Sequence record: NZ_CP140368.1
Direction: 5' to 3' (one strand)
DNA length: 38,066 nt
DNA from: a plasmid
Positions 36,001 to 38,066 of this stretch are shown piece after piece; the stretch's first letter is position 1; the number at the start of each line of letters is the position of its first letter. Made by a program: the position numbers.

Positions 36001-38066
36001 CATTGATATTATTATTATCCTTTAGCACCTCAAGCAAGCGATAGGTGGTAGAATTTTTATCTTCTCCCTTTTCGAACGAAAGTTTATAAACAAGTCTAGG
36101 AGCATTGATAATAACAGAGCTACCCATAAGACTTTCGCCTTTTTTGTCTAAGTGATGAAGTAATAAGATAGCTTGATTATTTGATTTTGCTATATCTGTT
36201 AGAATATTAAAGAAATTTTGCACATCGTTTTGATTGTTTTGATCTTTAAAGCCTAATGTTGAGAAAAATGCACTAAAGGTATCAAGAACAATTAAATCGC
36301 AATCTGCTAACTCATTAAGTTCTTCTTTTAAACAATTTATAGGTTCTTTATTGATTTTTGGAAGTTCATTCGAAAATTCAAGTTCCGCAGTATTAAAAGA
36401 ATAAAAACTTTCAATATTTTTTATGCGTCCTAAAATTGCTTTATTTTTATCTTCTACACTCCAAAAAAAAGGTTTTAAGCCATCATTAATAGCATTAGCA
36501 CATACCTTTAAAGCTAAAAAAGACTTGCCTACTTCACTATTGCCACTTAATACAGCTACAGAGCCCCTTTCCAGTTTAATTGTATCTTCGCAGATTATAG
36601 AAACATCTTCATCACTAAAAATTCCGAGTGTAATAGTATCAATAGTATTTCTTTTTGGCATTTTTTAATCCTTTGCTACTTCTATGATCTCAAATAGTTG
36701 TTTTATGATTTTAGGGTGCAATATTTCTCCACTATGATGAGGAATAACCATTCTATAAAGTCCTTTTTTATAGATTCTATGGCTGCCTTTTTGCCTATCA
36801 ATCGAAAATTTGCAGTCATTCTAGGCAATTCAGGCATTTGCTAAAACCATTGGAATAATTGAAGTTGTTTTATTTTCAATAATCCTTTTTTCTTCATTTG
36901 CAAGACTTTCTAAATAAAGCTCTCCTGCTTCTTTTATATTGACTAAAGCTTCTTCATAAGTATTTCCCTGCGAAACACAACCTTCAAGCTCTAAAATGCG
37001 TGCAAAATATCCATCCTGATCTTTTTCAATAATAATATTTAATAGCATCTTAATTCCTTGTATTAAAAAATGATAAGATTGACTTAAATGTAACAAATAT
37101 TTTAATCTTCGAAATAAATTATATCAAAGTATCACATCTATGTCAATAGGCAGCAATTTTAGAATTTTTTCAAATAAAATTGACTTAAATGTAATATGTA
37201 CTTACATTAAAGTCAACAAAAATTGCTAAATGCTCCTCTTATTTTCAAATAAAATTGACTTAAATGTAATGATTTTTGACTTAAATGTAATGATTTTTGA
37301 CATTTTTACGAAAATAACATATGGAAAATAGGGACTTTAAAAAAACAATTGACTTAAATGTAATGATTCCTAAATTCTTAAATTCATTAAATTTAATAAT
37401 ATTAAATAAGGTAAATCAAAAATTAAAATTTTTGAACTTTTATTTTAAAAAACTCCAAACAGAAAGTGTTGCTAATAGAAATAGAAATTATGATATAATG
37501 TTTTAATAGAAAATAAGCATAAGAAGCAGAGGTAAAAGAATGTGTAAAATTATTAAATATTTAGATTATACTAAACTTAACACTTTAGAGAAGCTGTATT
37601 TTGATTTAACAATTATGTTAATTGTAACTTTTTTAAGTTTTTTATTTCTTGTTTTTGAATTTTTCATTTATGAAAATATTGCTGTTTTCTTTCAAGATTG
37701 TTTTTTAATGTCTGTGATTTTTATTATTGGAATCACAGGTTTATTTCATACTTGTAAAGGTTTAAGAAAATACAAAGAGATTTTAAAAAAGGTTTAATGA
37801 TAAAAACTTTTATCAAGATTTGTGTAATATAATCTTTTTGTATTACACTTTAACATATAACATTAATTACTAAAAATAACTATTATATATCAGTAATTTT
37901 TAATATATAATAGTTATTTACTTTTAAAGTTCTGCAACCTTATCATTTGTGCCTACTTGTCTTATAGCATCAACAATTTGTTGTATGCTTTTACCTAGAG
38001 TTTGAAAAAGATCTAAATTCATTTGTTGTTCTTAAAAAATTCCATAGCACTTTCTCGTGGCTTTTG

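Follow-up and report, generated by a model that had tools for sequence, protein, structure and literature searches.

The 38,066-nucleotide plasmid sequence NZ_CP140368.1 (hereafter the window, meaning this whole stretch of DNA) contains an exact 140-nt repeat, one copy of which spans the virB5/virB6 junction of a type IV secretion system (T4SS) and the other the 3′ end of eexN, whose predicted product is an entry-exclusion lipoprotein. We found that a DNA copy of the virB5 tail forms the 3′ end of eexN, and that across Campylobacterota plasmids the tails of the two proteins are variable, usually matched within a plasmid, and evolving in concert. We therefore read EexN as a lipoprotein core joined to a copy of the VirB5 tail, and the tail as a putative module of exclusion specificity. 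To this reading as a whole, the last point of which we infer, we assign a probability of about 0.6.

Identity of the repeated segment

Positions 37927..38066 and 25119..25258 were identical base for base over 140 nt, as the initial annotation had described. Leftward of this segment the identity stops. No other repeat in the window comes near it in length, the runner-up being 67 nt at 78%, and an exact 140-nt repeat in 38 kb cannot have originated by chance. The last 1 kb of the window matched 208 pTet-family Campylobacter plasmids in a megablast search, and in NZ_CP044168 and NZ_CP071461 the equivalent of position 38066 joins position 1 directly, with 99.97% and 99.3% identity over the next 3 kb. 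Because these relatives run from 38066 into 1 without interruption, the window is a whole 38,066-bp circular plasmid that was cut within a gene. When read as a circle, the similarity goes on for about 15 bases into positions 1..15 (13/15 identical), and the homologous segment is therefore about 160 bp long with 97.5% identity.

The open reading frame (ORF) across the cut, 216..1 joined to 38066..38019 on the minus strand, encodes 87 residues (MKNTIKLALLGAVITGVFSACSSEPKTVQYYEDPKNATELEAKIKECDKNANSAQTDTECANAYKANYSKSFQKPRESAMEFFKNNK). This protein scored 55.8 bits against the NCBIfam model NF033894, 'EexN family lipoprotein' (cut-off 33), with residues 6-69 aligned to model positions 5-64 of 65, and the gene is annotated as EexN in two related records (L001 and L002). 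A pattern search placed its lipobox at MKNTIKLALLGAVITGVFSAC, followed by SSE..., with A20 and C21 invariant in 33 homologues. No Pfam match was obtained for the 87-residue protein, and hence no VirB5 domain (PF07996). Its sole VirB5-like part is the last 20 residues, YSKSFQKPRESAMEFFKNNK, encoded by 15..1 and 38066..38019 and differing by one residue (F/L) from the VirB5 tail YSKSLQKPRESAMEFFKNNK. The EexN tail falls outside the EexN family model, and the VirB5 tail itself is not covered by PF07996, whose match stops at residue 194 of the 218-residue fragment. In both genes the stop codon overlaps the following ATG (ATGA); for virB5, the stop at 25213..25211 overlaps the virB6 start at 25214..25212. 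The eexN gene lies 12.8 kb from virB5/virB6, or about 10.8 kb without the insertion sequence (IS) in virB5, and thus outside the usual context of the EexN family between these two genes, which is typical rather than definitional. These results indicate that the edge gene, as judged from its predicted product, is an EexN-family entry-exclusion lipoprotein gene and not a virB5 paralog.

From the window alone, in which virB5 similarity covers only the last 20 codons of an ORF that is cut by the edge, the initial annotation had proposed a second virB5 beyond position 38066, possibly compensating for the IS-disrupted copy, or else a duplication or collapse in the assembly. We give these readings practically no credence. 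The sequence beyond 38066 closes onto position 1, and the ORF there is eexN; compensation for the broken virB5 is impossible because only the last 20 codons of eexN are virB5-like. Dozens of independently sequenced complete plasmids share the two-copy arrangement, among them three separate records of the Campylobacter jejuni 81-176 pTet, which excludes an assembly artefact. In PLSDB, the pTet-type tail peptide was found in 65 records at 120 places, and therefore about 55 records carry the tail in both genes.

Beyond the eexN stop codon, the repeat continues into a 32-codon virB6 stub closed by a stop codon and followed by a 17-bp perfect hairpin, both of which the initial annotation had correctly located. 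The 32 codons are identical to the start of VirB6 and lack the TrbL/VirB6 membrane domain (PF04610), which in the intact VirB6 covers residues 40-252. In related plasmids the stub has 32 codons or about 17-27 codons, is frameshifted, or is absent. This dead reading frame is there because the copy was taken from the virB5/virB6 junction, an origin by DNA copying that the initial annotation had already suggested; the stub is a decaying by-product of that copying, which may serve as a homology arm for conversion. We also considered the stub as a conserved small peptide and ruled this out, since its length is variable, its frame is shifted in C. vulpis, and pCC31 and MTVDSCj07 lack it. A table in a 2022 paper lists 'virB6, 32 aa, truncated' beside cpp23/EexN with no comment (PMC9032879). 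The hairpin sits just 3′ of the stub with a T-run after it on the minus strand, and the same hairpin follows the stub of the eexN-a gene of C. novaezeelandiae; it is probably the eexN transcription terminator. A consensus terminator scan, which needs at least three G-C pairs, passed over it because its stem is nearly all A+T.

Tail pairing across Campylobacterota plasmids

We read the pairing of tails from whole plasmids or contigs carrying both eexN and virB5. Both proteins have a variable C-terminal tail after a conserved YSKS motif, and the EexN tail is about 16-26 residues long. Within the pTet family, the EexN core is 95-100% conserved and the residues past YSKS belong to unrelated types. 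The divergent C. vulpis plasmid pVULP (83% identity) also has its own VirB5 tail, and the tail is thus native to VirB5 and polymorphic. When EexN tails were compared with VirB5 tails, the cognate VirB5 tail was the best match in all eight distinct systems (mean local score 88.5 versus 23.4; permutation p = 6e-5). In the distant system of C. armoricus, whose EexN is only 39% identical to that of the window, the two tails are identical (Table 1). A repertoire of more than 40 EexN tail variants in the protein database was mirrored by VirB5 tail variants, and every full-length EexN with an extracted C-terminus has a tail past the conserved core.

Table 1. C-terminal tails of VirB5 and EexN encoded by the same plasmid or contig
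System	VirB5 C-terminus	EexN C-terminus	Matched segment
Window / 81-176 pTet	LQKPRESAMEFFKNNK	FQKPRESAMEFFKNNK	QKPRESAMEFFKNNK (pTet type)
pCC31	LQNFHNEAISDEEATKYLKKK	LQNFHNEAISDEEAAKFFKKK	QNFHNEAISDEEA..
THJ037	LQNLHNEAISDEEATKYFKKK	identical	QNLHNEAISDEEATKYFKKK
MTVDSCj07	FDYKPQVSTKELMQKAREQNKQ	..QNKNMELK	DYKPQVSTKELMQKAREQNK
C. novaezeelandiae	FDKERLDPSEFFKKKQ	identical, gene present twice	DKERLDPSEFFKKKQ
C. vulpis	YSKSLQKPRESAMEFFKNQNANDK	identical (..FFKNQNANDK)	
C. estrildidarum	contains LQNTKITDEEV	same core	
Helicobacter sp. MIT 11-5569	contains ITDEDIAKHFKRN	same core	
C. armoricus	SMGNEPLDYGELRKQAEEKAKASGLFD (27-residue tail)	identical	

Some plasmids carry more than one eexN gene. 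The C. novaezeelandiae plasmid pCNZW441b1 has three (7204-7491, 8022-8336 and 21667-21981); besides the two with the resident tail there is one whose tail, LENAKNTEITDEEASKYLNLKKKQ, is similar to that of a VirB5 from a different plasmid type (P0134). The C. armoricus plasmid pCA639-1 has two (7540-7848 and 14341-14649), and its additional EexN is similar to the VirB5 tail of a different plasmid of the C. lari group (P0153). From their sequences, these extra genes with foreign tails look as if they widened the exclusion range.

A metagenome scan returned four loci, of which one was informative. H. didelphidarum (L028) has an EexN-like ORF near which neither VirB5 nor VirB6 was found, and it was left out of the pairing. 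A separate 110-residue EexN-like protein (P0096), encoded on a 533-bp ENA contig, has a longer VirB5-derived part that includes ..VKNQVDLANASYENQRNIKKDLAMQEYSKS... and is joined at a shared ANA(S)Y motif; either natural variation or a chimeric assembly could account for it.

Anatomy of the copied DNA and concerted evolution

The segment shared by eexN and virB5 always starts at the YSKS codons, about 65-85 nt before the stop codon, and upstream of this point only about 14 nt of microhomology is found. Its right end varies in position relative to the stop codon. It lies at +92 in the window, C. jejuni 414, C. vulpis and C. novaezeelandiae eexN-a, all of which end at ...AEL; at +58 in THJ037 and GP013; at +47/+66 in C. 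novaezeelandiae b; at +25 in C. armoricus; and at about 0 in pCC31, MTVDSCj07 and Helicobacter. The coding tail is always kept, and the stub is variable or lost.

Within a plasmid the two copies are 96-98% identical, whereas a comparison of this segment of the window with that of the C. vulpis or C. novaezeelandiae plasmids gives only 74-80% identity. Paralogous copies in one plasmid thus resemble each other more closely than orthologous ones in different plasmids, and the tails evolve in concert. In the pTet-like plasmid THJ037, the products from VirB7 to VirD4 are 99-100% identical to those of the window, and a foreign patch of about 110 bp lies at the virB5/virB6 junction, with an identical patch in eexN. 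These findings indicate that recurrent gene conversion or short-patch recombination usually maintains the likeness of the two tails in a plasmid. The initial annotation had also expected that homologous recombination between the direct repeats could delete or invert the 12.8-kb segment between them; deletion is possible in principle, and inversion is not. No derivative without the segment was found in a non-exhaustive survey of PLSDB, and the 28-kb pOR12TET, which was checked, keeps it.

The disrupted virB5 and the VirB6 loop

The initial annotation had noted that virB5 is broken by an IS, and we identified this element as ISChh1, which splits the gene after position 25924. The intact VirB5 of 81-176 pTet has 323 residues. 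Because virB5 is broken by the IS, the window plasmid probably cannot transfer itself: judging from its genes, a functional pilus tip is probably not built and the plasmid may be non-conjugative, with eexN intact.

When VirB6 was compared among lineages, a hypervariable loop between two hydrophobic helices (residues 216-230, STWIKYFAKVTQAGD in the window) was found to vary together with the tail family. The loop STWI[KN]YF.. goes with tails of the ..EFFK.. family (four lineages), SGWISLLS.KIQ with ..[ST]DEE.. (pCC31, C. estrildidarum and the mosaic THJ037), and ISLSQH with ..STKELM.. (MTVDSCj07 and Helicobacter sp. 15-1451). This covariation is suggestive and makes the loop a candidate docking site for the tail. 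The pilin VirB2 was also examined as a co-varying partner and was ruled out, since its two types do not track the tail type (pOR12TET and MTVDSCj07 break the pattern).

Structure prediction

AlphaFold2 was run with family alignments on EexN and VirB5. The EexN core was predicted as a confident helical hairpin, with a predicted local distance difference test (pLDDT) value of about 90. The two models end alike, with a long helix reaching YSKS, a break of 6-7 residues, and a short helix AMEFFKN of low confidence. The shared predicted ending fits what would be expected of a flexible docking peptide. A sequence search of PDB returned no relative of EexN, and a VirB5 profile returned nothing at E <= 0.01.

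C-terminal resemblance in proteobacterial systems

The eexN gene is located between virB5 and virB6 in R46 and other IncN plasmids, in IncX1 and IncX3 plasmids, and in plasmids of Pasteurella, Paraburkholderia and Pseudomonas. Several of the cognate C-terminal pairs of VirB5 and Eex resemble each other, though less closely than in Campylobacterota, including VDYKAAFE / VDYKDAFK in IncX3, LSMPNVTE / LSMPKVTP in an IncN plasmid and ..QRRLNGKGGSY / ..IRRSNIRGGNY in Pasteurella. In R46, the ends of TraC/VirB5 (..FVFGTGGDVTASPSIN) and Eex (..FVLGKEDGEINSPKI) show a loose resemblance. A first test of cognate similarity with five proteobacterial systems was not significant (p = 0.08), and significance was reached only with nine systems (permutation p 0.0003-0.0016) or with one system per family (six families; exact p = 0.0069).

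In the IncP plasmid R751, TrbJ, the VirB5 homologue (25565-26329), ends in ..QQAAAAAQLRQGSYRASPARTW, and TrbK (26340-26567) ends in ..QQAFSSLCLRRGGDFKPSPKREW. The local alignment of the two C-termini scored 44, a value reached by none of 5000 shuffles (0/5000). In the literature searched, we found no report that the C-terminal resemblance of TrbJ and TrbK had been noticed or tested.

Interpretation and alternative explanations

If the tail determines exclusion specificity, the following mechanism can be envisaged. The tail of VirB5, the pilus-tip protein, would be a short amphipathic peptide that docks within the tip/stalk complex of its own T4SS, either onto neighbouring VirB5 subunits (homotypic docking) or onto the co-varying VirB6 loop. 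In a recipient already holding the plasmid, the periplasm-facing EexN lipoprotein would present the same peptide. EexN could then occupy or join the docking site on an incoming cognate machine and thereby block formation of a productive channel, and plasmids with a different tail would escape recognition.

Several observations weigh against the assignment of exclusion specificity to the tail. We infer from sequence both that the Campylobacter EexN excludes and that its tail confers specificity, and matching tails alone are no proof of function because gene conversion can homogenise repeats without selection. Matching is also incomplete: about 10 of the 65 PLSDB records hold the pTet-type tail at one place only, and in C. 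coli RM4661 pRM4661_48kbp, the one clear natural mismatch read, a VirB5 with a pTet-type tail (gene at 12215-13186) is paired with an EexN of the pCC31 type (2213-2491), so that this plasmid, if the reading is right, would exclude pCC31-type plasmids and not itself. The covariation with the VirB6 loop is broken by C. taeniopygiae. Among proteobacteria the signal holds at the family level only, the cognate pair is not consistently the best within IncX or IncN, and Paraburkholderia and P. monteilii show no cognate tail resemblance. In the structure predictions, the tails have pLDDT values of 50-67 and the VirB5 model is weak (mean 64.7), and where the VirB5 C-terminus lies in the assembled T4SS could not be read from the text of the R388 cryo-electron microscopy study (PMC9259494).

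The main rival is a neutral origin, in which the virB5/virB6 junction was long ago copied onto eexN by illegitimate recombination, gene conversion has homogenised the copies since, and the tail has no function in EexN. Such an event would account for the useless virB6 stub within the copy, for the near identity of the intraplasmid copies as DNA, non-coding positions included, and for the existence and persistence of mismatched plasmids. We nevertheless regard it as unlikely, since it is weakened by the fate of the copied parts. The stub, which offers the longer homology arm, has been truncated, frameshifted or lost in pCC31, MTVDSCj07, Helicobacter MIT 11-5569 and C. armoricus, yet their tails are matched; none of the full-length EexN proteins in our set ends at its core; and the extra eexN copies keep tails of the VirB5 type of other plasmids, unconverted to the resident type. 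Resemblance at the protein level also occurs in the IncP, IncX and Pasteurella systems, and a related Eex loses exclusion when its C-terminus is truncated (PMC8923210). Of the recombination scar raised in the initial annotation, the copying is thus retained, but not the view of a mere scar, as the coding part stays matched to the resident virB5 over many tail types and the stub decays.

The tail may instead act as a shared assembly signal within one cell, bringing both VirB5 and EexN to their own T4SS, for example to VirB6, with EexN forming part of, or regulating, the resident machine. The covariation of the VirB6 loop with the tail family would fit such a signal, as would the Eex homologue of pKPC_UVA01, which is required in both donor and recipient (PMC8923210). 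The VirB5 homologue of RP4, when made in the recipient, itself contributes to exclusion, which can be read in the same way. Extra eexN genes with tails of other plasmid types, however, make little sense for a purely internal signal, and the covariation with VirB6 has its exception. Moreover, Pohlman and colleagues are said to have found in 1994 that the pKM101 Eex works in recipients without the rest of the T4SS. On balance, we consider a purely internal role of the tail rather improbable.

Extended beyond Campylobacterota, the specificity reading would become a general rule for conjugative plasmids of the mating-pair formation class T (MPF_T), including pTet, IncX, IncN, Pasteurella and IncP TrbK/TrbJ systems. 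In each, the specificity determinant of the exclusion lipoprotein would be a tail copied from, or mimicking, that of the cognate VirB5, mimicry would act at the docking site of the VirB5 tail, possibly the variable VirB6 loop, and an exclusion group would be switched by swapping one cassette of about 100 bp in both genes. We propose this rule tentatively and put its chances at somewhat under even. EexN is a known family, and the tail-sharing arrangement appears to be undescribed; no description of a shared EexN/VirB5 tail was found in the literature searched, in which subscription journals were thinly covered, so that an earlier notice is possible.

Whether a conjugative plasmid, for instance a resistance plasmid such as pTet or one of the IncN, IncX or IncP groups, can enter a cell depends on entry exclusion, which is now being engineered against the spread of antimicrobial resistance. 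Our finding points to a short, swappable determinant, namely the VirB5 C-terminal tail, of which the exclusion protein bears a second copy, and offers a hypothesis on an unsettled point of conjugation biology that can be tested directly. If it is correct, the exclusion groups of Campylobacter plasmids would be predictable from sequence. Natural test material is available in the tail types on near-identical backbones, in THJ037 with both loci swapped, in the mismatched RM4661 plasmid, and in the extra eexN genes with foreign tails.

Other features of the plasmid

The coordinates of the features discussed above are listed in Table 2. A tet(O)-size ORF (639 aa) is absent from the ORF list of the window, which seems to have the backbone of the pTet family but to lack the tetracycline-resistance gene, comparable to the 38,030-bp pTet of strain CAMSA2002. 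Four to five iteron-like direct repeats with the core TTGACTTAAATGTAA and a spacing of 75-101 bp are located at 37073-37368, between a hicB-like ORF and eexN. A comparison of window 36662-37096 with 3635-4049 of L002 showed that, in related plasmids, hicA and hicB lie upstream of a 597-residue AAA ATPase. In L001, the closest relative of the window, hicB is annotated and hicA is not, and hicA may have been lost or disrupted in the window plasmid.

Table 2. Positions of the eexN, virB5 and virB6 features in the window
Feature	Position	Strand	Basis
eexN 5′ part, codons 1-72: lipoprotein signal peptide, lipobox ...VFSAC, two-cysteine EexN core	1..216	-	joined ORF, NF033894
eexN 3′ end: last 15 codons and TGA (38021..38019)	38019..38066	-	translation
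Repeat copy 2, exact 140 bp: eexN tail and virB6 5′ stub	37927..38066	-	repeat comparison
Repeat copy 1, exact 140 bp: virB5 tail and start of intact virB6	25119..25258	-	repeat comparison
virB6 stub: ATG (38022..38020), 32 codons MNLDLFQTLGKSIQQIVDAIRQVGTNDKVAEL, TAA (37926..37924)	37924..38022	-	translation
Hairpin: 17-nt arms 37874-37890 / 37903-37919, 100% complementary, 12-nt loop (probable terminator)	37874..37919	-	inverted-repeat search
virB6, intact, 332 aa	24216..25214	-	Pfam TrbL/VirB6 at 2.1e-34
VirB6 hypervariable loop, residues 216-230	24525..24569	-	comparison among lineages
virB5 3′ portion, residues ~87-323, ending YSKSLQKPRESAMEFFKNNK	25211..25924	-	PF07996 at 2.5e-18; collinear with intact 81-176 pTet virB5 up to 25924
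IS607-like ISChh1 in virB5 (right end approximate)	25925..27947	+	NCBIfam IS607 transposase at 3.6e-66 and TnpB; PLSDB annotation 'IS607-like element ISChh1'
ISChh1 serine recombinase	26026..26664	+	
ISChh1 TnpB	26651..27943	+	
virB5 5′ fragment, signal-peptide region, first ~86 codons	27948..28244	-	translation matches residues 1-86 of intact VirB5

Comparison with known systems

The Eex proteins of the IncN plasmids pKM101 and R46 are similar to the window protein in belonging to the EexN family (NF033894), in being small two-cysteine lipoproteins, and in being encoded on MPF_T conjugative plasmids. They differ in gene position, as the IncN gene lies between virB5 and virB6, whereas the eexN of the window is distant from this junction yet carries a copy of it. 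In the window system, moreover, the tail is a near-exact copy of the virB5-tail DNA and is polymorphic among otherwise near-identical plasmids.

In the Eex-TraG system of SXT/R391 and the TraS-TraG system of F-like plasmids, specificity resides in short variable segments that match between the recipient protein and a donor component of the VirB6 class. Unlike EexN, to which they are unrelated, Eex and TraS of these systems are inner-membrane proteins that recognise a complementary segment and hold no copy of donor sequence. Both pairings are cited in a study of the Xanthomonas protein Tpf (XAC2611, DUF4189), a periplasmic factor that shields sister cells from the cognate T4SS by binding VirB5 directly (bioRxiv 10.64898/2026.05.09.723464). 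Its authors describe this as the first direct interaction between an exclusion protein and its target known to them (bioRxiv 10.64898/2026.05.09.723464). Like EexN, Tpf is a protective envelope protein of the recipient encoded near vir genes, and its binding to VirB5 is a further point of likeness. It has a different fold and family, guards against effector delivery rather than DNA entry, and has no reported sequence shared with VirB5. For exclusion of the TrbK/EexN type, neither the donor-side partner nor the basis of specificity has been identified (PMC8923210).

The IncP plasmids RP4 and R751 offer a close parallel, as the small exclusion lipoprotein TrbK adjoins the VirB5 homologue TrbJ and the C-termini of the two are similar in R751. 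TrbK differs in its NCBI family name, and its resemblance to TrbJ is at the protein level only, with no recent DNA copy. Both trbJ and trbK contribute to exclusion in recipients: in RP4, trbK alone gave about 3.5-fold exclusion and trbJ with trbK about 10^4-fold (bioRxiv 10.64898/2026.09.24.754286), and both genes guard recipients from killing mediated by the RP4 T4SS (PMC11045733). If the VirB5 tail is indeed the determinant that the exclusion lipoprotein displays, this could explain the contribution of VirB5/TrbJ to RP4 exclusion.

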